Program-made: the position numbers and the translations under genes
Shown here: in pieces, positions 4,092-61,619 of the stretch
How the letters are laid out: each line of letters starts with the position of its first letter
How positions within the stretch are numbered: position 1 is the first letter of the stretch
From: Smithella sp.
GTDB taxonomy: Bacteria; Desulfobacterota; Syntrophia; Syntrophales; Smithellaceae
Direction of reading: 5' to 3'
DNA: 64,000 nt
Assembly (NCBI GenBank): GCA_049523355.1
Contig: JBEKMY010000001.1
Span: 76,454 to 140,453, forward strand
Notes under the pieces: model-generated
The model's database searches: none
What the model was told of the DNA's origin: nothing
The model's input: the letters and a program-made list of their open reading frames with translations, nothing else

Positions 4092-4140
4092 GAGGTGCAA
4101 TGATGAATAGTAATATTCTTTGCCGGTAAAAGCCGAAAGG

Positions 4141-4256
4141 TTTTGCAAAACGCTCATCTGCCGCGTTGCACTGCAAACCGCACCGCTCAACGTATTTTTA
4201 TATACGCCTCGCGATTCGTTTTTTGTTCGCCTTGCATCTCTGGCATTTTTGAACAG
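4141..4256 (+). repeat. Intergenic repeat, family A copy (forward), between folC and lptD
   Basis: Collinear with 38924-39049. Shared blocks are caaaacgc(y)catctgc(s)gcgttgc, a central acgtat..atacg hairpin, and cgccttgcatct..ttttt(r)aacag. Confidence 0.7.
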
Positions 4257-4354
4257 TGAATAATCGCGGGGCTTTAAACAATCCCATTTCATAAAATAAC
4301 CTTATATGATAATAAAAAAGTAAGAAAAAGGCGGTCTTATCAAACAAAGATAAA

Positions 4355-27405: not shown

Positions 27406-27454
27406 GATCTCCTCTAATAACGTCTTGCATAAATAGTTATTTATATTTTTTTAA

Positions 27455-27570
27455 CGACTTTATGAAAAAGTTTCATACACAAGGCGTGCAAGACCTGAAG
27501 GATGAGACGTACTTTTTTCGTACGTCGCAATGCCGAAGGTTGCAGCGCAACGTAGTATATGGACTTTTAC
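27455..27570 (-). repeat. Intergenic repeat, family A copy (reverse orientation) inserted between gatC and gatA
   Basis: The reverse complement is collinear with 40204-40313 and 38924-39049. The central perfect hairpin is gacgtac-ttttttc-gtacgtc (27506-27526). Confidence 0.75.
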
Positions 27571-27578
27571 CAAAGCCA

Positions 27579-27866
27579 TTAGTCGATGACTTTGGGCACG
27601 CGGAAGAACTCGCCGCGCGCGTCCGGCGCGTTCGCTAATGAATTTTCCGTGCCGATTGAATCCAATATTTTATCTTCGCGAAACGCGTTAGTCATGGCAA
27701 TCGCGTGGCTCATCGGCTCCACGCCTTTGGTATCCAGCTCGTTTAACTTATCTATGTAGAGCAGAATATCGTTGAGTTGAGCGGTAAATTTTTCTTTTTC
27801 CTTGTCTGTTACTTCCAGACGCGCTAAATTCGCCACATATTCAACTTCCTCAGAGCTTATTTTCAA
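27579..27866 (-). CDS. gatC: Glu-tRNA(Gln) amidotransferase subunit C
   Basis: 95 aa, MKISSEEVEYVANLARLEV..., canonical GatC. Confidence 0.9.
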   Translation of the reverse strand: MKISSEEVEYVANLARLEVTDKEKEKFTAQLNDILLYIDKLNELDTKGVEPMSHAIAMTNAFREDKILDSIGTENSLANAPDARGEFFRVPKVID

Positions 27867-33725: not shown

Positions 33726-35429
33726 ATGAAGCTGAGAGGAACTCAAATACTACTGAAGGCGCTTGAAGAAGAAAAGGTTGATATTATCTTCGGGTATCCC
33801 GGGGGAGCCGTTCTTGATATCTACGATCAGCTTTATAAAAGTAATACGAAACATATTCTGGTTCGGCATGAGCAGGGCGCTGTGCATGCCGCAGACGGCT
33901 ACGCCCGCGCTACGGGAAAAGTGGGAGTGTGCCTTGTTACCTCAGGTCCCGGAGCCACCAATACCGTTACCGGCATTGCCACGGCGAATATGGATTCCAT
34001 TCCTCTTGTCATTTTTACGGGACAGGTGCCCACGGGACTTATCGGTAATGATGCTTTTCAGGAATGCGATATTACAGGAATAACACGTCCCTGTACAAAG
34101 CATAATTTTCTGGTGCGCAATATTGACGAGCTCGCTTCGACGATTAAAGAAGCATTTCATATCGCCCGCTCGGGAAGACCGGGGCCGGTTCTTGTTGATT
34201 TGCCCAAAAATGTGATGGTGGCGGAAACAGAATATGACCCCGCCAATATAAAAATCAGAAACTATGAAGCGTCATACAAACCGGCTCCCAAGAAAATGTC
34301 CAATCTCTTTGAAATGCTGACTTCCGCTAAAAGACCTCTAATCATGACCGGCGGCGGTGTTATCTTGGGAAAGGCCTCCGCGCAGCTAACGGGGCTGGCC
34401 AGAAGATATCAGATTCCGGTTACCGGCACTTTGATGGGGTTGGGTTCTTTTCCGGGGAGTGATTCGCTCTGGTTGGGAATGCTGGGGATGCACGGCACTT
34501 ACTACGCGAATATGGCCATCAGCCACTGCGATTTACTTCTTGCCGTGGGCGTGAGATTTGACGACAGGGTCACCGGCACCATTGAGACATTTGCTGCCAA
34601 CGCCAAAATTGTCCAGATTGATGTTGACCCATCCTCCATTAATAAAAATGTTACTGTCGATTTGCCGATAATCGGCGATACAACAGCGGTACTTAATGAT
34701 TTGCTTAAATTCCTGGATGAACATAATTATACATATGAAGCAGCCCGGCGGCAGGAATGGCTGGGGCAGATTGCCGAATGGAAAGAAAAAGTGCCGTTGA
34801 CATATTGCCAAAACAGCAAAGAAATTAAACCGCAGTTTGTAATTGAAACTCTGCATAAATTGACTAAAAGCGACGCGATTATCACAACGGAAGTCGGTCA
34901 AAATCAGATGTGGACAGCGCAGTTTTTTCCTTTTGAAAAGCCTAATACTTTTATTTCTTCGGGCGGATTGGGGACAATGGGTTTCGGCCTGCCCGCGGCT
35001 ATAGGCATCAAATGCGCCTTTCCGGATAAACAGGTTGTGGATATTGCCGGCGACGGCAGCATCCAGATGAATATTCAGGAACTGGCCACTGCCGCGCAAT
35101 ACAAAATTAACGTGAAAATAGTCCTGTTGAACAATGGCTATCTGGGAATGGTCCGCCAGTGGCAGGAATTATTTTACGAGAAGCGCTATTCGCATACCGA
35201 TATGACTTACGCCCCTGACTTTGTTAAATTAGCGGAGGCGTTTGGCGTTGTCGGTCTGCGTGCCAGTAAACCGGAAGAAGTGGAAGCCGTTCTTCAAAAG
35301 GGGCTTTCCATGGACAAACCGGTGCTGATGGATTTCCGGGTGTCGCGTGAAGAAGGTGTTTATCCTATGGTGCATCCCGGCGATTCAATAGCCAATATGT
35401 CGCTGGGGAGCAGAGAAATGATTAACTAA
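33726..35429 (+). CDS. ilvB: Acetolactate synthase (AHAS) large subunit
   Basis: ThDP enzyme, 567 aa: GYPGGAVLDIYD, GPGATN and GLGTMGFGLPAAIG...GDGS. Confidence 0.95.
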   Translation: MKLRGTQILLKALEEEKVDIIFGYPGGAVLDIYDQLYKSNTKHILVRHEQGAVHAADGYARATGKVGVCLVTSGPGATNTVTGIATANMDSIPLVIFTGQVPTGLIGNDAFQECDITGITRPCTKHNFLVRNIDELASTIKEAFHIARSGRPGPVLVDLPKNVMVAETEYDPANIKIRNYEASYKPAPKKMSNLFEMLTSAKRPLIMTGGGVILGKASAQLTGLARRYQIPVTGTLMGLGSFPGSDSLWLGMLGMHGTYYANMAISHCDLLLAVGVRFDDRVTGTIETFAANAKIVQIDVDPSSINKNVTVDLPIIGDTTAVLNDLLKFLDEHNYTYEAARRQEWLGQIAEWKEKVPLTYCQNSKEIKPQFVIETLHKLTKSDAIITTEVGQNQMWTAQFFPFEKPNTFISSGGLGTMGFGLPAAIGIKCAFPDKQVVDIAGDGSIQMNIQELATAAQYKINVKIVLLNNGYLGMVRQWQELFYEKRYSHTDMTYAPDFVKLAEAFGVVGLRASKPEEVEAVLQKGLSMDKPVLMDFRVSREEGVYPMVHPGDSIANMSLGSREMIN

Positions 35430-35430
35430 A

Positions 35431-35525
35431 GACTTCGTGAAAAGTCTGGGGGCATGGCCTTGCTTCGCATATGCGCTGCAAGGCAAATACCTTGATCGCC
35501 TCGTATCCGGAACTTTTGACGAAAC
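35431..35525 (-). repeat. Divergent member of the intergenic repeat superfamily, inserted between ilvB and ilvN
   Basis: Terminal inverted repeats gacttcgtgaaaagtc / gaacttttgacgaaac. The left end matches the reverse complement of 40303-40319. The central 7-bp hairpin is gccttgc...gcaaggc (35457-35484). Confidence 0.5.
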
Positions 35526-35562
35526 CTTTAAAAAAATAATAAATAATGACGAGGTTAAAAAA

Positions 35563-37139: not shown

Positions 37140-37260
37140 CAGACGGCTCTGTAAAGAGTCCATCTGCGGAGCCTGCCGAGGTTATGGCCGGTGTAATGCT
37201 GCATGGCAATCTGTATTTTATTTATTAAGAAATTTGTTAAATTAAAAGGGAGAGTAAACA

Positions 37261-38922
37261 ATGAGAAGCGATCTCATGAAAAAAGGTTTGGAGCGGGCGC
37301 CGCATCGTTCACTTTTTAAGGCGATGGGCTATACGGATGAAGAAATTGCGCAGCCATTGATTGGTGTTGTAAATTCCGCCAATGAAATTATTCCCGGACA
37401 CATCCATCTGGATTTAATCACTCAGGATGTTAAAGCGGGAATCCGTACGGCTGGGGGCACACCAGTGGAATTTCCGGTTATCGGCGTTTGTGACGGCATC
37501 GCGATGGGACATGCCGGTATGAAATATTCACTTGCCAGCCGCGAACTGATTGCCGATTCCATCGAGATTATGGCCAATGCTCATCCTTTTGACGCTCTCG
37601 TGTTCATTCCTAATTGCGACAAGATTATTCCCGGCATGCTCATGGCGGCATTGCGCCTGAACATTCCGGCTATTTTCATCAGCGGCGGTCCGATGCTGGC
37701 GGGACAACTTCAGGGTAAAGGCGTCGACCTCATCAGCGTTTTTGAAGGTGTGGGAGCGGTCAAAGCCAAAAAAATGACAGCCGCCGCGTTGAAGCAGCTG
37801 GAGGATTGCGCCTGTCCTGGTTGCGGTTCCTGCTCCGGCATGTACACGGCCAATTCCATGAACTGTGTAACGGAAGCGCTTGGTCTTGGATTACCCGGCC
37901 ATGGAACTATTCCGGCGGTGCTGGCTTCCCGTCACCGGCTGGCCAAACATGCCGGGATGAAAATAATGGATTTACTCAAGCGCAACGTCAGGCCGCGCGA
38001 TATCTGTACTCTTGCCGCTTTTAAAAATGCCATCGCCGTGGATATGGCGCTTGGTTGTTCCACCAATACCGTTTTACATATTCCCGCCGTTGCTCATGAA
38101 GCGGGAATCAAGCTCGATTTAAACCTCTTCAATAAAATCAGCGGGGAAACGCCCAATCTCTGCAAGCTCAGTCCAGCCGGACATCATCATATTGAAGATC
38201 TGGATGCGGCAGGTGGCATTCAGGCCGTAATGAAAGTAATCAGCGCCCTGGGCGTGATTGATGAAAAGGCAATTACCGTAACCGGCAAAACAGTCGGCGC
38301 CAATTTAAAAAACGCACGTGTTTTGAATACTGACGTAATCAGAACTTTGAAAAATGCCTATTCACAGCAGGGCGGCATCGCGATTTTGCGCGGTAATCTC
38401 GCGCCGGATGGAGCGGTGGTGAAACAATCCGCAGTGGCGCAGGCGATGCAGATAAACGAAAGCAGGGCCCGCGTGTTTGATTGCGAAGATGACGCCATCG
38501 CGGCAATCCTGGGCGGCAGGATTAAAGGCGGCGACATTGTGGTTATCCGCTATGAAGGACCCAAAGGCGGCCCGGGCATGAGAGAAATGCTTTCGCCCAC
38601 TTCAGCAATCGTGGGAATGGGGCTGGATAAGACAGTGGCGCTTTTGACGGACGGACGTTTCAGCGGCGGCACGCAGGGCGCGGCAATCGGCCACATATCG
38701 CCCGAAGCCGCGGAAGGCGGACCGATCGCGCTTGTAAAAGAAGGCGATATTATTGCCATTGATATTCCGGCCAAAAAGCTGAACCTGAAAGTAAGCGATC
38801 AGGAACTGGCTAAGAGAAGAAAGAGTTTAAAGCCGTTTAAACCGGCAATAACGTCAGGCTATCTGGCGAGATACGCCAAGTTGGTGACGTCGACGTCAAC
38901 GGGCGCAATCTTCAAAGACTGA
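37261..38922 (+). CDS. ilvD: Dihydroxy-acid dehydratase
   Basis: 553 aa: [26 protein letters not shown] and [15 protein letters not shown]. Confidence 0.95.
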
Positions 38923-38923
38923 T

Positions 38924-39049
38924 GGGGCTGTCCCAAAACGCCCATCTGCGGCGTTGCGCTTCGCCTTTCGTCATTGCGACGTATGCACAAAATACGTCTC
39001 ATTTCTCAAGGCTCGCGCGCCTTGCATCTGAACGTTTTTAAACAGCCCC
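38924..39049 (+). repeat. Intergenic repeat, family A (most complete copy), with terminal inverted repeats ggggctgt..aaaacg / cgttttt..acagcccc
   Basis: It starts 2 nt after the ilvD stop. The central perfect hairpin is gacgtat-gcacaaa-atacgtc (38978-38998). Collinear with 4141-4256, 27455-27570 (reverse complement), 40204-40313 and 41422-41457. Confidence 0.75.
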
Positions 39050-39054
39050 CAAAT

Positions 39055-39141
39055 GTTTTTAAATACGTATGCGGAGCCGACTCCTCGCCGCCGCGTTATC
39101 CATTGAAATCAAAATGGTATATATAGTAATCTTTGGTTTGA
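39055..39141 (+). repeat. Right-half fragment(s) of the family B repeat abutting the family A copy
   Basis: aaatacgtatgcggagccgactcctcgccgccgcgttatccattgaa...tggtat matches 52866-52925. The following atctttggtttgag matches the right end of 19833-19940. Confidence 0.55.
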
Positions 39142-39169
39142 GATAGGAATAAAATAAGAAGTAACTGTC

Positions 39170-39192
39170 ATTGCCGGGTTTGACCCGGCAAT
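39170..39192. repeat. REP-like 9-bp palindromic hairpin (attgccggg-tttga-cccggcaat)
   Basis: Perfect inverted repeat read directly from the sequence. Only a single copy occurs in this window. Confidence 0.4.
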
Positions 39193-39450
39193 CCAATGTT
39201 ATATGTGTAATCTTTTCAAAATAGATTATACGGGATTATATGTATCGCTTAAGCGACCACAGCCGTTTGAACCAAAGGCAAGTTTTGTAATCGCCTGCAA
39301 CGAGTCTTAGATCTATCCAACATGCTTTAAGGTTAAGCGAAAAGGATATTTAAGCAACACTCCGCAAAAGACACGACCTGATAAATAAATGTTATTCTGT
39401 ATTTTACCCTGATTTTTAGAATTCTCGTATAGTCGTTCTTTTTTGTTTTT

Positions 39451-40194
39451 CTATTTTCTTGCCGCAAGTATTTGGCGGACCCTTTCCAATTCCTGCTGAT
39501 TGTCCACCTCCACGGAATCATGGGGAGTGATGACAACTTTAATTTTATATCCGTATTCCAGAGCGCGAAGCTGTTCGAGGGCTTCGAGCTTTTCCAGTTT
39601 TCCTTCTGGGAGTTTGGTGAAGACATCGAGAAAATCACGACGGTAAGCGTAAATGCCATGATGTTTATAGTAATCTGCTTTCAGGGATTTGTCGCGCACG
39701 TAAGGAATCGTCGCCCGGGAAAAATAAAGGGCGAAGTTCTGATGATCGAGGACAACCTTAACCGCGTGCGGATGGATTATTTCTTCATCAAGAAGAATTT
39801 TATAAATCAGCGTGGACATGACAATTGCCGGGTCGTCAACCAATGGCTGGATGACTTCGTCCACCTGCACGGGCTCAAAGATCGGTTGATCGCCTTGGAT
39901 ATTGACGACAATCGCGTCAGCAGGAAGATTAAGCGATTTTACCGCTTCGGAGATTCTATCCGTGCCGGAGCGATGCGTGGTTGACGTCATAATGGCATTA
40001 CCGCCGAATTTATTTACAGCGTCGAATATTCGCAGGTCGTCAGTTGCCACCGCCACATAGGGGATGGCTTTGGCTTTTGCTACACGTTCGTAGACATGTT
40101 GAATCATCGGTTTTCCGCACAGGTCAGCCAGAGGTTTCCCGGGAAAACGGCTGGATTCGTATCTTGAGGGGATGATGCAAACAATTTTTCTCAT
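39451..40194 (-). CDS. kdsB: 3-deoxy-manno-octulosonate cytidylyltransferase (CMP-KDO synthetase)
   Basis: IIPSRYESSRFPGKPL, and IVVNIQGDQP. The ATG at 40194 is preferred over the TTG at 40200. Confidence 0.9.
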   Translation of the reverse strand: MRKIVCIIPSRYESSRFPGKPLADLCGKPMIQHVYERVAKAKAIPYVAVATDDLRIFDAVNKFGGNAIMTSTTHRSGTDRISEAVKSLNLPADAIVVNIQGDQPIFEPVQVDEVIQPLVDDPAIVMSTLIYKILLDEEIIHPHAVKVVLDHQNFALYFSRATIPYVRDKSLKADYYKHHGIYAYRRDFLDVFTKLPEGKLEKLEALEQLRALEYGYKIKVVITPHDSVEVDNQQELERVRQILAARK

Positions 40195-40203
40195 TAACAA
40201 CTC

Positions 40204-40313
40204 CGTAAAAAGTCAATATACTACGTTGCACCGCATCCTTCGTCCTTGCGGCCTACGCTTAAGGAGGCCGCACTCCTCAGGCTTTGTGCGCCTTGTCTGG
40301 GGAGCTTTTTACG
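40204..40313 (+). repeat. Intergenic repeat, family A copy between hldD and kdsB
   Basis: Terminal inverted repeats cgtaaaaagtc / gagctttttacg. The 5' part is nearly identical to the reverse complement of 27540-27570. The central hairpin is replaced by gcggcct-acgcttaagg-aggccgc (40248-40271). Confidence 0.75.
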
Positions 40314-40372
40314 AAGTCGCTTAAAACAGTATAATCGAATAAAATGCTTATTATTTTGTTTCTTAAATATTT

Positions 40373-41421: not shown

Positions 41422-41457
41422 GAGCTGTCCCAAAACACCCATCTGCGGCGTTGCGCC
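41422..41457 (+). repeat. Truncated 5' end of the family A repeat
   Basis: gagctgtcccaaaacacccatctgcggcgttgcgc matches 38925-38959 with 2-3 mismatches and then diverges. Confidence 0.7.
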
Positions 41458-41468
41458 GCAAACTGCAT

Positions 41469-52452: not shown

Positions 52453-52803
52453 ATGAAATTAATAAATTATGAATCCGTTACACCAACTCATTTTGATAAT
52501 GATGCGGCCAGGGGAGTTGCCGGTCGTGTGGTGGCGGGCAAGGCTGACGGAGCGAAAAATTTTTGCATGCGGATTTTTGAAATTGCTCCGGGAGGGCATA
52601 CGCCGAAACACACTCATCCGTGGGAACATGAAATGTTTATTCACTCAGGTGTTGGTGAAATTTACGGTAACGGTAAGTGGAATCCGATCAAGCCGGGAAA
52701 TGTTGTTTTCATGCCTCCTGATGAAGAACATCAGGTTAGAAATACTGGCAAGGAACTCTTGATTCTGGCTTGTTTGGTGCCGTCAATCGCACCTGAATTA
52801 TGA
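52453..52803 (+). CDS. Cupin-domain protein
   Basis: AGGAG RBS before the ATG at 52453. Cupin motifs GGHTPKHTHPWEHEMF and GNVVFMPPDEEHQVRN. Confidence 0.75.
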   Translation: MKLINYESVTPTHFDNDAARGVAGRVVAGKADGAKNFCMRIFEIAPGGHTPKHTHPWEHEMFIHSGVGEIYGNGKWNPIKPGNVVFMPPDEEHQVRNTGKELLILACLVPSIAPEL

Positions 52804-52925
52804 TACCAAGCCGCATTCTTTGGCTAACTTTGTTAGCAGCGTCGTCGGCTTCCTCAACGTATTAGAAATACGCCTGCGGAGCCTCCTCCTTGCCGCCGCG
52901 TTATCCTTTGAATGCGACTTGGTAT
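52803..52925 (+). repeat. Intergenic repeat, family B, complete copy with 16-bp terminal inverted repeats (ataccaagccgcattc / gaatgcgacttggtat)
   Basis: The TIRs match 15/16. The central hairpin is cgtatt-aga-aatacg (52858-52872). It fills the convergent gap between the cupin gene and the FAD oxidoreductase gene. Confidence 0.7.
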
Positions 52926-52947
52926 AAAAATTTGTGTGATATTATAT

Positions 52948-55025: not shown

Positions 55026-55104
55026 TTGCAGTTTATTTGGAGTCCCTTAATTTTAAGGGGTATTATTAAAATAAAAAAAGTAATTTAACAAGGAGGGTTT
55101 TAAG

Positions 55105-55323
55105 ATGAAACGTTTAGGATTGTTTGTTATCGCATTGGTTTTCGCATTTTGCACCACCGTTATGGCTGCTGAGCCTGCTGCCGCTCCCGCTGCTGCTCCC
55201 GCTGCAGAAAAAGCTGCTCCCGCAAAAGCAGAGAAAGTAAAGAAAGCAAAGAAAGCAAAGAAAGCAAAGAAAGCAAAGAAAGCTGAAGAGAAAACTGAAG
55301 AAGCAGCACCCGCAGCAAAATAA
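55105..55323 (+). CDS. Small secreted Ala/Pro/Lys low-complexity protein (72 aa)
   Basis: AAGGAGG RBS. Signal peptide MKRLGLFVIALVFAFCTTVMA|AEP. The mature part is AAP repeats followed by (KKA)n, ending in EEAAPAAK. Confidence 0.65.
   Translation: MKRLGLFVIALVFAFCTTVMAAEPAAAPAAAPAAEKAAPAKAEKVKKAKKAKKAKKAKKAEEKTEEAAPAAK
55239..55283 (+). repeat. Perfect 9-bp tandem repeat aaagaaagc x5 (encodes the KKA repeats)
   Basis: Counted directly from the sequence; five identical units. Confidence 0.95.
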
Positions 55324-55350
55324 GGTTGTAAAAACTTTATGTAGTTCAAA

Positions 55351-55385
55351 TTAAGGGACAGGTATTACTTGTCCCTTAATTTTGA
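55351..55385 (+). terminator. Rho-independent terminator (ttaagggaca/tgtcccttaa followed by ttttgag)
   Basis: 10-bp stem plus T-run, 28 nt after the stop codon. Confidence 0.65.
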
Positions 55386-55427
55386 GTATATTAAAATAAA
55401 AAGTGATTTAACAAGGAGAATTTTAAG

Positions 55428-55736
55428 ATGAAGCGTTTAGTATTACTTGTAGTAGCATTAGTTTTCGCGTTTAGCACCACCGCAATGGCAGTTGATCAGG
55501 CAACAGTGGCCGACACAAAGGTTGAGAAAGCAGCAGTGAAAGCCGACGTAAAAGTTGATAAGGCCGCAGTGAAAGCCGACGCAAAGAAAGCCAAAGACGA
55601 AAAGAAAGCTGAAGCAAAGGCAGCCAAAGCCGCAGCGAAGGCCGACGCAAAGAAAGCCAAAGCTGAAAAGAAAGCCGATGCAAAGAAAGCTAAAGCCGAC
55701 AAGAAAGCTGAAGAAGCAGCTCCCGCAGCAAAATAA
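55428..55736 (+). CDS. Small secreted Ala/Lys low-complexity protein (102 aa), paralog of 55105-55323
   Basis: AAGGAG RBS. Signal peptide MKRLVLLVVALVFAFSTTAMA|VDQ. Repeats of the AAVKAD/AKKAKAEKKA type and the same C-terminus EEAAPAAK. The upstream 60 nt is nearly identical to that of 55105. Confidence 0.65.
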   Translation: MKRLVLLVVALVFAFSTTAMAVDQATVADTKVEKAAVKADVKVDKAAVKADAKKAKDEKKAEAKAAKAAAKADAKKAKAEKKADAKKAKADKKAEEAAPAAK

Positions 55737-55760
55737 GGTTGTAAAACTTTATAAGATTTG

Positions 55761-59975: not shown

Positions 59976-61619
59976 CTAACTCAAGACAGCTCCCTTGGCC
60001 GCGGAACCAACCATTTTAACGTACCGCCGCATATATCCGGCAGGGATACTGCGCTGGGGCGCAATCCATTTGCCAAGCCTCTTTTGCATTTCATTGTCGC
60101 TTATGGCCACGCTCAGGGAACGCGCCGGGATATCAATCATAATTTCGTCGCCGTCGATGAGCGCCGCCATAGGACCGCCCACATAGGCCTCCGGCGAAAC
60201 ATGGCCAATGCACGGCCCCGCCGTGGCGCCCGAAAAACGGCCATCGGTGATGAGCGCCACATTCTTGATGCCGTACAACTCCAATCCCATCGTGACTGCC
60301 AGTGTTTCGGGCATGCCCGGGCCGCCCCTGGGGCCTTCATAGCGGATAACGATTACCGAACCTTCCCTGATGCTTCCTCCGCGAATGGCTGACAGAGCTG
60401 CCTTCTCACCTTCGAACACCTGTGCCGGACCTTGGAATACACGCATTTCAGGAGCAATGGCCGAGGTTTTGACCACCGAACCGTCGGGGGCCAGGTTGCC
60501 GAAGAGAATGACCGTGCCGCCTTCGGCCTGAAAGGCATGGGCCTTATCAGGGATAACGGTTTCATTTATGATAACTGCTTCGGCGATTATCTGTTCCACA
60601 GTGACGCCTCCTACATTCAAGGCTTCTAAATGCAGATCATCAGCCAGGCGTTTCATAACCACCGGAACGCCACCCGCCATATAAAAATCAATTAAACCAT
60701 ACGGGCCGCTGGGAGAGATTCCGCACAGAGTCGGAATCTTGATGCCCATCTCGTTAAAGCGCTCAAGGGGCAATTCCAGGCCCAGTTCATGGGCAATAGC
60801 CGGCAGATGCAGAGTGGCGTTGGTTGAACCGCCAATAGCCAGATTTACAATAAGGGCGTTTTCCAACGCCTGTGGTGTGATAATTTTCGAGGCGGTCAAA
60901 TCTTCATCAAGCAGTTCCACGATCCGCTTGCCGGCCTCACGCGCCATTGCAAGCCTGCCGGAATGAAAGGCCGGAATGTTGGCTGATCCGGGCAGAGCCA
61001 ATCCCATGGCCTCGGCAAGACATTGCATGGTGTTGGCCGTACCCATGACCTCGCACGATCCACATGTGGCGGCTGTGCATGAGGCGAGTTTGTCGAGCGG
61101 GTCGGTATAATATTTATGGTCTGCCGCTTCGTTTTTACTTGGTTTGAAACGGATATCCCATGAATTGGGACCTCCCGTGACAAAAATAACCGGCATGTTG
61201 AGTCTTGCCGCCGCCATGATCATGCCCGGTATGATCTTGTCGCAACTCGCGATAAAGACCAGGGCATCGTAGCGCATGCTGCGGACATGGGTTTCGATGA
61301 TATCGGCGATAAGATCGCGTTGGGCCAGGACAAAGCGCATACCTTCATGTCCCTCGGTCATGCCGTCGCACGGCGCGGGCACATTGAATTCGAACGGCAA
61401 TCCGCCCGCAGCATGGATTCCTTCCTTCACGCGCTGAGCGATCGTGTTTAAGTGCATGTGGCCGGGATTAATCTCAGTGAAGGAATTGGCGATTCCTATA
61501 ATGGGTTTAACCGAGGCTTCGTTGATGTCCACGCCGGTGCCCATAAAAATGTATCGCCTTACAATACTGATCGGGAAATCGCTTTCGTCGAAAATTGCCT
61601 GGCTTTTGGGTTTCTTCAT
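59976..61619 (-). CDS. IlvD/Edd-family dehydratase, second paralog (substrate unknown)
   Basis: 547 aa: [36 protein letters not shown] and RYEGPRGGPGMPE. It is clearly diverged from the ilvD at 37261 and is G+C-rich. Confidence 0.85.
   Translation of the reverse strand: MKKPKSQAIFDESDFPISIVRRYIFMGTGVDINEASVKPIIGIANSFTEINPGHMHLNTIAQRVKEGIHAAGGLPFEFNVPAPCDGMTEGHEGMRFVLAQRDLIADIIETHVRSMRYDALVFIASCDKIIPGMIMAAARLNMPVIFVTGGPNSWDIRFKPSKNEAADHKYYTDPLDKLASCTAATCGSCEVMGTANTMQCLAEAMGLALPGSANIPAFHSGRLAMAREAGKRIVELLDEDLTASKIITPQALENALIVNLAIGGSTNATLHLPAIAHELGLELPLERFNEMGIKIPTLCGISPSGPYGLIDFYMAGGVPVVMKRLADDLHLEALNVGGVTVEQIIAEAVIINETVIPDKAHAFQAEGGTVILFGNLAPDGSVVKTSAIAPEMRVFQGPAQVFEGEKAALSAIRGGSIREGSVIVIRYEGPRGGPGMPETLAVTMGLELYGIKNVALITDGRFSGATAGPCIGHVSPEAYVGGPMAALIDGDEIMIDIPARSLSVAISDNEMQKRLGKWIAPQRSIPAGYMRRYVKMVGSAAKGAVLS

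Follow-up and report, generated by a model that had tools for sequence, protein, structure and literature searches.

Compensatory substitutions keep three helices of a 125-nt intergenic repeat, probably a mobile element, in Smithella and other bacteria

If hairpins recur at one place within an intergenic repeat, with stems of like length and unlike sequence, is this the mark of selection on a fold, and what kind of element would carry such a fold? The question is raised by a 64,000-nt stretch of a Smithella sp. genome (GenBank assembly GCA_049523355.1, contig JBEKMY010000001.1, positions 76,454 to 140,453 of the forward strand; hereafter the window, with coordinates counted from its first letter), in which a perfect 7-bp hairpin at 40248–40271 lies in the middle of one such repeat. 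The original prediction, made from the letters of the window alone, held that this hairpin and three others are perfect 7-bp stems at one aligned position, that a further repeat family carries a similar one, and that stems maintained while their sequence is swapped are a sign of selection on structure. We find that pairing in three helices of the repeat is kept by compensatory substitutions, and that the hairpin is probably the apical stem-loop of a non-coding, multi-copy, intergenic mobile element of about 125 nt, akin to MITEs (transposable elements of the miniature inverted-repeat kind) and to repetitive extragenic palindromes (REPs).

Four full copies of the repeat, designated A, B, C and F, were found by a profile search of the window and then with a covariance model, R1. 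One genome per GTDB species was scanned with a pattern in which only two conserved blocks were fixed and the centre and ends were left free, which gave at least 120 loci. R1 was built from 34 sequences with the structure specified by hand on a subfamily alignment, because RNAalifold run on the raw MAFFT alignment of all subtypes, in which the variable helices were misaligned and hence lost, recovered only the conserved helix. In the loci listed plus the window R1 found 139 copies (at least 139 overall), about 20 of which have diverged blocks and do not fit the scan pattern. The model is strand-specific, scoring 100–145 bits on the forward strand versus 16–57 bits on the reverse, or 100–115 versus 16–22 bits in one comparison.

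The element measures 122–131 nt, typically some 125 nt, and reaches about 160 nt in copies with a third arm. A single strand of each copy folds into one long imperfect hairpin with five helices. The outermost, P1, comprises about 20 bp (21 model pairs, 84% paired) with an A5 run on its 5' side and a T5 run on its 3' side, both of these columns being nearly invariant. Inside P1 lies a 2x2 TC/TC loop, next inward P2 (UGC:GCA), then a TT bulge, and then P3, in which GCGU-GCR pairs with YGC-GCGC around one bulged U. P2 and P3 fall within two internal blocks of 16–17 nt, CATCTGCNGCGTTGCRC and GCGCGCCTTGCATCTG, which pair with fixed bulges and are conserved in sequence, partly as an artefact of the scan pattern, by which centre and arms were unconstrained. 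A small internal loop follows, enclosing P4 (5–6 bp), then a large internal loop whose two sides differ (TCGTCAYTGC, CTCAYTCCTC), and finally the apical stem P5, of 7 bp with a loop of 4–8 nt. The tip is laid out as CGTC | RYTGC-GGCGTAC-loop-GTACGCC-TCAY | TCC. Of 132 copies, 28 bear the third arm, which lies 8–10 nt downstream, repeats the 3' arm in direct orientation and pairs with the 5' arm better than the inner 3' arm does.

Copy A (38922–39050, plus strand; 114.8 bits to R1 over its full length) folds as one long hairpin, its first base being the final base of the ilvD stop codon TGA (38920–38922), and carries P5 at 38978–38998 as GACGTAT, loop GCACAAA and ATACGTC. Copy B (27452–27582, minus strand; 99.7 bits) occupies the spacer between gatC and gatA (Pfam GatC and Amidase), with the gatC stop TAA (27579–27581) inside its opening 4 nt and with P5 at 27506–27526, minus strand, reading GACGTAC, GAAAAAA, GTACGTC. 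Copy C (40194–40322, plus strand; 101.1 bits), flanked on both sides by minus-strand genes, includes positions 40204–40313 and hence the hairpin that raised the question, the counterpart of P5 (40248–40271, plus strand; GCGGCCT, ACGCTTAAGG, AGGCCGC). Its perfect 7-bp stem is displaced 2 bp outward relative to the family register, and its orthologue in the relative L129 (95% IlvD identity) has the stem in the usual register, as GGCCTAC/GTAGGCC. Copy F (4140–4261, plus strand; 56.3 bits; nhmmer E = 8e-23), a member of a diverged subfamily (AAACCGCACCGCTCAACGTAT...) that the original prediction did not list, sits between a Mur-ligase gene and lptD, with P5 at 4189–4208, plus strand, as ACGTAT/ATACG. 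R1 sets the apical hairpins of A, B, C and F at identical model positions.

All five stems of the original prediction exist where it had placed them (38978–38998, 27506–27526, 40248–40271, 35457–35484 and 52858–52872), and those of copies A and B do differ solely by one compensatory pair, T:A to C:G. The shared position is borne out by the covariance model for A, B and C and fails for the fourth stem (35457–35484, GCCTTGC/GCAAGGC), which lies in a degenerate copy D (35426–35530, plus strand) in the ilvB/ilvN spacer. Copy D scores only 19.1 bits, with 45 nt of interior unaligned; it retains the outer arms and a diverged 3' block, and what stands in place of the interior seems to be the CGCCTTGC block duplicated in inverted orientation, so that, judged by sequence comparison, this hairpin has no homology with P5. 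The claim that the stem is conserved in length but not in sequence goes too far: the consensus GGCGUAC/GUACGCC recurs in 25 of 102 copies, and many of the 48 distinct versions of P5 among these 102 are the consensus with a single mismatch. Full exchanges do occur (GGCCUAC/GUAGGCC, GGCGGGC/GCCCGCC, CAUGUAC/GUACAU and GGCGUAU/AUACGCC). Perfect 7-bp stems are in themselves not rare, an estimated 30 or so being expected by chance per strand per 64 kb; the non-random feature is their shared aligned position across homologous copies, together with covariation throughout the family.

This covariation was measured on the model-fitted alignment of 106 copies, in which 87.6% of cells hold standard pairs versus 71.5% after shuffling. 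The covariation score is 0.42 versus 0.16 shuffled, a value reached by none of 500 shuffles (the shuffle tests, here and below, take no account of shared ancestry among the copies); sliding the partners by 1–3 columns gives 0.05–0.09. Changes on both sides were found in 21 of 21 pairs of P1, 5 of 5 of P4 and 7 of 7 of P5, whereas P3 is simply conserved. A model-fitted alignment leans towards its own model, and the count was repeated on a structure-blind MAFFT alignment of 119 sequences. There P4, P5 and two intended pairs of an extension, P5a, together score 0.338 versus 0.158 shuffled and at most 0.135 slid, the P5a pairs being misplaced by a column or two and contributing noise rather than signal. 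An extra pair that lengthens the apical stem covaries as well (A:T 32, G:C 22, C:G 5, mismatches 8). Pairing in P1, P4 and P5 is kept by compensatory substitutions; the effect is large, limited to defined helices and present in subfamilies of different phyla. Selection on the fold is supported, and the part of the original prediction that proposed it holds on 106–119 family members instead of four, with covariation far above shuffles.

Is the structured repeat mobile? The source is an uncultured Smithella, the name borne by IlvD homologues of 99% identity, and the contigs are from peat metagenomes. We compared orthologous sites in five Smithella relatives with 90–95% IlvD identity. The element after ilvD in the window is present in L129 and absent from the other four relatives. 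Upstream of kdsB it is again present in the window and in L129, and in L132 the same 5' arm (AACAACTCCGTAAAAAG) is followed by a different repeat. The ilvB-ilvN spacer, which in the window holds the gutted copy D, holds a full element in L132 and measures 36–58 nt elsewhere, and the ilvC-ilvD spacer, with a 5' remnant only in the window, has a full element in L129. At these four orthologous intergenic sites, whether a copy is present thus varies from one related species to another. The 5' arm right after the ilvC stop persists in several species despite a changed interior. Two of the 36–58-nt ilvB-ilvN spacers carry short palindromes that overlap the ilvB stop codon (L129:3190-3215, ATGACTTTTGACGAAGTCAT; L131:3290-3310, CTGACGACATCGTCAG), which could be scars of excision or deletion, or resident hairpins targeted by the element.

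Flanking direct repeats of 8–10 nt occur around copies that carry the third arm. Those of at least 8 nt accompany 9 of 133 elements versus 1.4 expected, and those of at least 9 nt accompany 6 versus about 0.45. Examples are CATTCTTTGA (L091), CATAATGGAC (L123), AAATTGGAT (L099), CCATGAGTC (L053) and AACTGTGAT (L030), and some of the young copies bear such repeats, of 8–10 bp. Truncated, nested and tandem partial copies are common. The long flanking repeats of L059, L121 and L125 were considered as target duplications and proved to be tandem or partial duplications; at L059:1-400, from a Bacteroidales metagenome-assembled genome (MAG), the element lies inside a tandem duplication of about 210 nt whose unit takes in the 3' portion of a tRNA-like sequence (GGGGTCGAACCTGGAGACTTCAGATCCA).

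With flanking genes signed by their strand relative to the orientation of the element E, 31 copies lie in tandem in sense (+E+), 21 in tandem in antisense (-E-), 19 between convergent genes (+E-) and 3 between divergent genes (-E+). Copies thus favor gene 3' ends and avoid divergent promoter regions, with orientation weakly biased with respect to transcription. Next to 70 of 139 copies, a same-strand open reading frame (ORF) of at least 100 codons ends between -11 and +7 nt of the element's 5' end, with the peak where the TGA of the consensus start ...TGAYGG... acts as the stop. On the other side gene ends cluster 16–40 nt off, the length of the third arm. Copy D abuts the stop of ilvB, and a remnant consisting of the 5' arm and CCATCTGCGG (37140–37169, plus strand) lies immediately 3' of that of ilvC. 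Insertions in or just after the last codons would be tolerated since the element's own ends supply stop codons. ORFs that cross the element are spurious.

Beyond the window, most of the matches listed are from Thermodesulfobacteriota (Smithella, Syntrophaceae, Desulfatibacillaceae, Desulfobacterales, Geobacteraceae), one Desulfatibacillaceae MAG holding at least 15 copies; others come from Gallionellaceae, Burkholderiaceae, Rhodocyclaceae, Gemmatimonadota, Rokubacteria, Terriglobia, Nitrospirae and a Marinobacterium isolate. Rfam at its gathering threshold gave no match over the whole window and eight loci, and at E ≤ 10 on 38900–40350, which spans copies A and C, it gave only chance-level matches, all outside the elements. 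BLAST against 72,556 plasmids gave no match, and a literal search of 8 million papers for the conserved blocks retrieved only an unrelated primer.

Known structured elements were considered and set aside. Signal recognition particle RNA came into view since some copies adjoin dnaX, ybaB and recR; no model of that RNA was matched there by Rfam, and the shared words CAAGGC and AGAUG occur in a different order. The copies of that neighborhood are L015:90-213, L103:476-605, L011:1580-1708 and L095:7367-7491, of which two lie shortly upstream of dnaX and two follow recR immediately; they may be orthologous insertions in related MAGs or mark a preferred site. A selenocysteine insertion sequence (SECIS) or other recoding signal after UGA is contradicted by the ordinary housekeeping genes that precede the elements, by the absence of SECIS features and by the use of all three stop codons (TGA 24, TAG 10, TAA 9). 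Integron attC sites are excluded by sequence, GTTGCGC departing from GTTRRRY and its partner being AAGGCGC, not RYYYAAC, and by context, the flanking genes forming housekeeping operons (ilv, gatCAB, kdsB, lptD).

An earlier published listing is a set of 24 sequences described as "predicted short RNA elements" in Geobacter metallireducens, Gmet_R1001-1024, of about 112 nt, intergenic and sometimes within operons, as between dapAB and dapL, on whose structure, covariation, distribution and function the 2009 paper is silent (BMC Microbiol 9:109, Additional file 4; PMC2700814). They share with our repeat a central palindrome CGTAGC-GCT-GCTACGCC (GRCGTAGCGCTGCTACGCC) followed by TCCGCG, and the motifs ATCT..CGTTG and GCCTTG. 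A Geobacteraceae copy, L061, aligns to the six Gmet copies tested with z = 5.5–9 (0 of 200 shuffles). The nhmmer profile of our seed alignment detects no Gmet copy significantly, and the window copies align to them with z of about 0–4, not individually significant, so that the link is transitive and runs through L061 only. On this sequence evidence the Gmet elements are probable distant relatives of the family, which is absent from Rfam and essentially uncharacterized, and had been listed, unanalyzed, only in that paper.

The apical module recalls CGTC-tagged REPs, which consist of an unpaired tag, a stem, a short loop and a tail, include dRS3 of Neisseria and RPE-4/6 of Rickettsia, and have no dedicated transposase that has been found (Di Nocera et al. 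2013, BMC Genomics 14:522, PMC3733652). Our element likewise has an unpaired CGTC (variants TGTC, CCTC, CGGC), then a stem whose opening pair is most often A:T (32 copies, with G:C in 22 and C:G in 5), a short loop and TCC as its pyrimidine tail, and is intergenic, multi-copy and present in several phyla with no linked transposase. The tetranucleotide directly 5' of the stem is CGTC in 47 of 106 copies. Most others carry one-base variants there (CGGC, AGTC, TGTC, CATC, CTTC), further tetranucleotides such as GCAC or TCGT are also met, and beta-type copies have CCTC. Unlike described CGTC REPs, which measure 20–40 nt and usually form head-to-head dimers, the element bears a single REP-like tip on a 125-nt hairpin, together with two bulged blocks that are conserved, a helix P4 that covaries and outer arms of 20 bp; its stem is of 11–12 bp with a bulge and a mismatch versus 8–9 bp, its loop of 4–8 versus 4–5 nt, and its tail TCC versus CCA. 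The comparison with REP/RAYT-type systems (RAYT, REP-associated tyrosine transposase) that the original prediction had suggested is therefore apt, at the level of the apical module. REPINs, mobile hairpins of about 100 nt built around a REP sequence, are also similar in that the stem is kept by compensatory change (Bertels and Rainey 2011); they differ in that a REPIN consists of two inverted REPs in a genome with a RAYT gene flanked by REPs, whereas our element has a single REP-like tip and conserved blocks that are not self-complementary, and no recurrent small transposase-like ORF or RAYT was found in a search that covered the sequence beside the copies.

In overall form the element is close to bacterial MITEs such as Correia, ERIC, Nezha and Chunjie: 100–250 bp in length, non-coding, with terminal inverted arms of about 20 bp (here P1, every one of its 21 model pairs covarying), able to fold whole into a stable hairpin, intergenic and sometimes inside operons, often truncated, with 8–10-bp direct repeats around some young copies and with presence or absence varying between relatives. 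Chunjie of Geobacter uraniireducens, with 21-bp terminal inverted repeats and 9-bp direct repeats, is a nearby described MITE, the likeness being to its description only. Its base composition is GC-neutral, in contrast to the AT-rich MITEs. It also departs from the textbook MITE in that its bulged interior is conserved, its arms vary and can be exchanged, a third arm occurs, and stop codons lie adjacent. SPRITE and other terminator-like repeats are similar in that runs of A and T bracket the stem, which stands just after stop codons and can be read on both strands, and in that remnants resemble terminators; intrinsic terminators differ, their hairpins being far shorter, and the main subtypes of the element having the T run inside the outer stem. 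The element belongs to a broadly familiar kind, that of small mobile palindromic repeats.

As a mobile element, which is the reading we favor as the probable one, the repeat would spread as DNA through a transposase supplied in trans, selection would act on the folded single strand, either as DNA during mobilization or as RNA in read-through transcripts, and the apical module with the bulged conserved blocks would probably form a recognition surface for a protein. With its stem bracketed by A5 and T5, the whole element would have the anatomy of a bidirectional intrinsic terminator or 3'-end stabilizer, which would explain the tolerated insertions at stop codons and the persistence of remnants as terminator-like hairpins. 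Several observations weigh against the mobile reading. When the 3,364 ORFs in the 8-kb flanks of 120 loci were clustered all versus all, only housekeeping and spurious clusters emerged, with no recurrent transposase or other gene within 4 kb of the copies. A search for a longer element with matching ends, with arm pairs 0.5–3.5 kb apart, was noisy and found none, a weak negative in that the search for a parent insertion sequence (IS) covered about 1.1 Mb of flanking sequence. The window's own copies have no clear target-site duplication, and flanking repeats occur in a minority of copies, being absent or decayed in most, and vary in length (7–10 nt, with odd cases of 20–33 nt), which is unusual for a single DDE transposase. 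Conservation is reversed with respect to a typical MITE, the termini varying between subfamilies and the interior being conserved. At one orthologous site the same arm flanks different cores (window and L129 versus L132), which might reflect mosaic recombination, or else insertion into a hairpin that was already there. Copy B, moreover, is internal to the gatCAB operon. Signals on the folding strand are also at odds. On the strand that carries the blocks, A.C mismatches in P1 and P5 exceed G.U by about 2.5 to 1, whereas in P3 G.U dominates, so that the wobble signals conflict, also after clustering at 80–95% identity. In 116 of 133 copies the fold of the complementary strand is the more stable, by about 8 kcal/mol, a gap that may be due in part to purine-rich loops and not to pairing.

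Among the alternatives to a mobile element, one that must be taken seriously, though we consider it rather unlikely, is a cis-acting structured RNA in the 3' untranslated regions or intercistronic spacers of mRNAs, serving as bidirectional intrinsic terminator, attenuator or barrier to 3'-exonucleases, the last a role also proposed for REP and SPRITE elements; host selection on this RNA fold would then maintain the stems, with mobility as its mere route of arrival. The preference for gene 3' ends, the avoidance of divergent promoter regions and the 5' ends that abut stop codons all agree with such a role. The A5 and T5 tracts bracket the stem such that a stem followed by a T run is met in both reading directions. 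A simple terminator scan cannot score hairpins of 90 nt; it does call the 5' fragment E (41433–41468, plus strand; 5' arm and first conserved block; nhmmer E = 3e-5) at 41463–41441 on the minus strand, where a 10-bp hairpin followed by GGGTGTTTTG stands right after the stop of a Cu-oxidase_4 gene and resembles a working terminator. The third arm of 28 of 132 copies, able to replace the inner 3' arm as partner of the 5' arm, gives a switch-like layout, and the 5' arm kept after the ilvC stop while the interior changed fits as well. Yet the bias among tandem genes is weak, as the 31 sense and 21 antisense copies attest, the counts of G.U versus A.C do not favor the mRNA-sense strand in the variable helices, conserved bulged blocks of 17 nt would be superfluous for a terminator, and copy B lies in sense orientation within gatCAB.

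A somewhat more doubtful proposition is that the single-stranded DNA fold is what matters, the CGTC-tagged hairpin and the bulged blocks being the substrate of an enzyme encoded elsewhere in the genome, such as a RAYT, an IS200/IS605-type HUH transposase or another structure-specific recombinase, as for REPs and REPINs. The layout of the tip matches the CGTC-REP format (PMC3733652). A second repeat in Smithella relatives, GTCATTCCCGC...GCGGGAATCCAG (also TTGTCATTCCCGC...GCGGGAATCCAG; L130:4850-5000, L132:10290-10400 and L133:4790-4990), is a unit of the classic CGTC-1/dRS3 type and has on its two sides the GTAAAAAG and CTTTTTAC arms of our element, which suggests modular elements with common arms. 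Sequence conservation is strand-specific, and the TT and T bulges provide conserved extra-helical bases, which are typical of DNA hairpins recognized by proteins, as in IS608 and attC. Against these points, clustering of the 8-kb flanks gave no Y1/HUH gene near any copy, transposition of the HUH type makes no target duplication whereas 8–10-nt flanking repeats exist, and the element holds one REP-like unit inside a larger hairpin instead of a REP doublet. Nor did Di Nocera et al. find a dedicated transposase for CGTC REPs (PMC3733652).

More speculative, and in our estimate improbable, is a horizontally spreading structured module with recognition machinery of its own, in which a dedicated protein would bind the blocks and the CGTC tip, the exchangeable arms would serve as the insertion interface, and the module would home to hairpins close to stop codons. 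The bulged blocks are near-identical from Thermodesulfobacteriota to Gallionellaceae, Gemmatimonadota and Rokubacteria. If true, this would define a new class of mobile terminator or of structured single-stranded DNA or RNA element, and might explain how "orphan" CGTC REPs move.

Could the covariation arise with no selection on structure at all? Arm-to-arm correction at quasi-palindromes is established, and the whole element is an imperfect palindrome of which both strands fold, so that complementarity kept by template switching or gene conversion within the element during replication is mechanistically possible; the interior of copy D even resembles a palindromization event. Such homogenization would, however, erase asymmetry, and the TT bulge, the single-T bulge, the 2x2 TC/TC loop and the large loop with unlike sides are conserved across phyla. 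A.C mismatches at the second pair of P5 persist in many lineages, and covariation is confined to defined helices, all of which leaves passive homogenization a quite unlikely source of the signal. Least probable of all is a family of genes for trans-acting small RNAs whose pyrimidine-rich loops (UCCUC) could pair with ribosome-binding sites. Conserved loops and covarying stems are typical of structured RNAs, and "predicted short RNA elements" was the guess of the Geobacter annotators (PMC2700814). Yet a conserved promoter was not found, and the copies run into stop codons and in one case into a neighboring gene's ribosome-binding site, occur in either orientation, are often truncated and vary in presence between close relatives; dozens of copies per genome are atypical for such an RNA.

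The overlapped ribosome-binding site belongs to kdsB, downstream of copy C on the minus strand. The complement of the 5' arm of copy C (40192–40215, minus strand) reads ...ACGGAGTTGTTAATG and supplies a GGAG Shine-Dalgarno motif 7 nt upstream of the kdsB ATG (40192–40194, minus strand). The same arm (ACTCCGTAAAAAG) is retained upstream of kdsB in L129 and in L132, although the interior repeat of L132 differs. From its sequence and position, the arm looks like a repeat arm co-opted as the ribosome-binding site of kdsB.

Besides the four full copies the window holds at least three remnants, and it also contains related hairpins. The "family B" copy of the original prediction (52802–52926, plus strand), found by fold and motif search and scoring only 9.1 bits with R1, is a long hairpin related to the repeat; its tip, CGTATT/AATACG (52858–52872), is like P5 while its outer blocks differ, and it resembles the subtype of Gmet_R1010/R1013 (...CCGCGTTATC...). 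A 3' half of the same kind (39061–39121, plus strand), a direct repeat 82% identical to 52866–52926, lies 10 nt downstream of copy A, whose 3' end is at 39050. At 2542–2582, between two plus-strand genes, a near-perfect palindrome with about 19 bp per arm (…TAAGACTTCTCACATCG-AT-CGATGTGAGAAGTCTTA…) has ends that resemble the outer arms of the repeat, and could be a "core-less" hairpin or an ordinary terminator. Two features of the window concern other subjects. Tandem 9-nt and 33-nt repeats at 55070–55750 encode a lysine/alanine-rich (AKKA-like) sequence in two adjacent short ORFs, which are partly duplicated (55070–55172 is 82% identical to 55393–55495, and the 3' ends are 91% identical); this composition suggests duplicated histone-H1-like basic proteins. 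Inverted matches of 73–87% (37591–37691 with 61168–61268, and 38542–38587 with 60305–60350) tie ilvD to a 547-aa minus-strand ORF at 59976–61619, which is probably a second paralogue in the window, of dihydroxy-acid or phosphogluconate dehydratase.

Small palindromic repeats shape the intergenic regions of bacteria, and few of them have a defined structure; CGTC-tagged REPs are not known to have a mobilizing enzyme. The present family is an unusually clean case, with five helices, three of which show abundant covariation, bulged blocks that look like protein sites, a distribution over several phyla and a precise landing at stop codons. It also shows signs of co-option, in the arm that appears to serve as ribosome-binding site of kdsB and in the remnant that forms a terminator-like hairpin. 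Its elements now generate spurious ORFs and probably disturb the prediction of operons and terminators; with a covariance model like R1, annotators could mask or label them in MAGs of Thermodesulfobacteriota and of other phyla.

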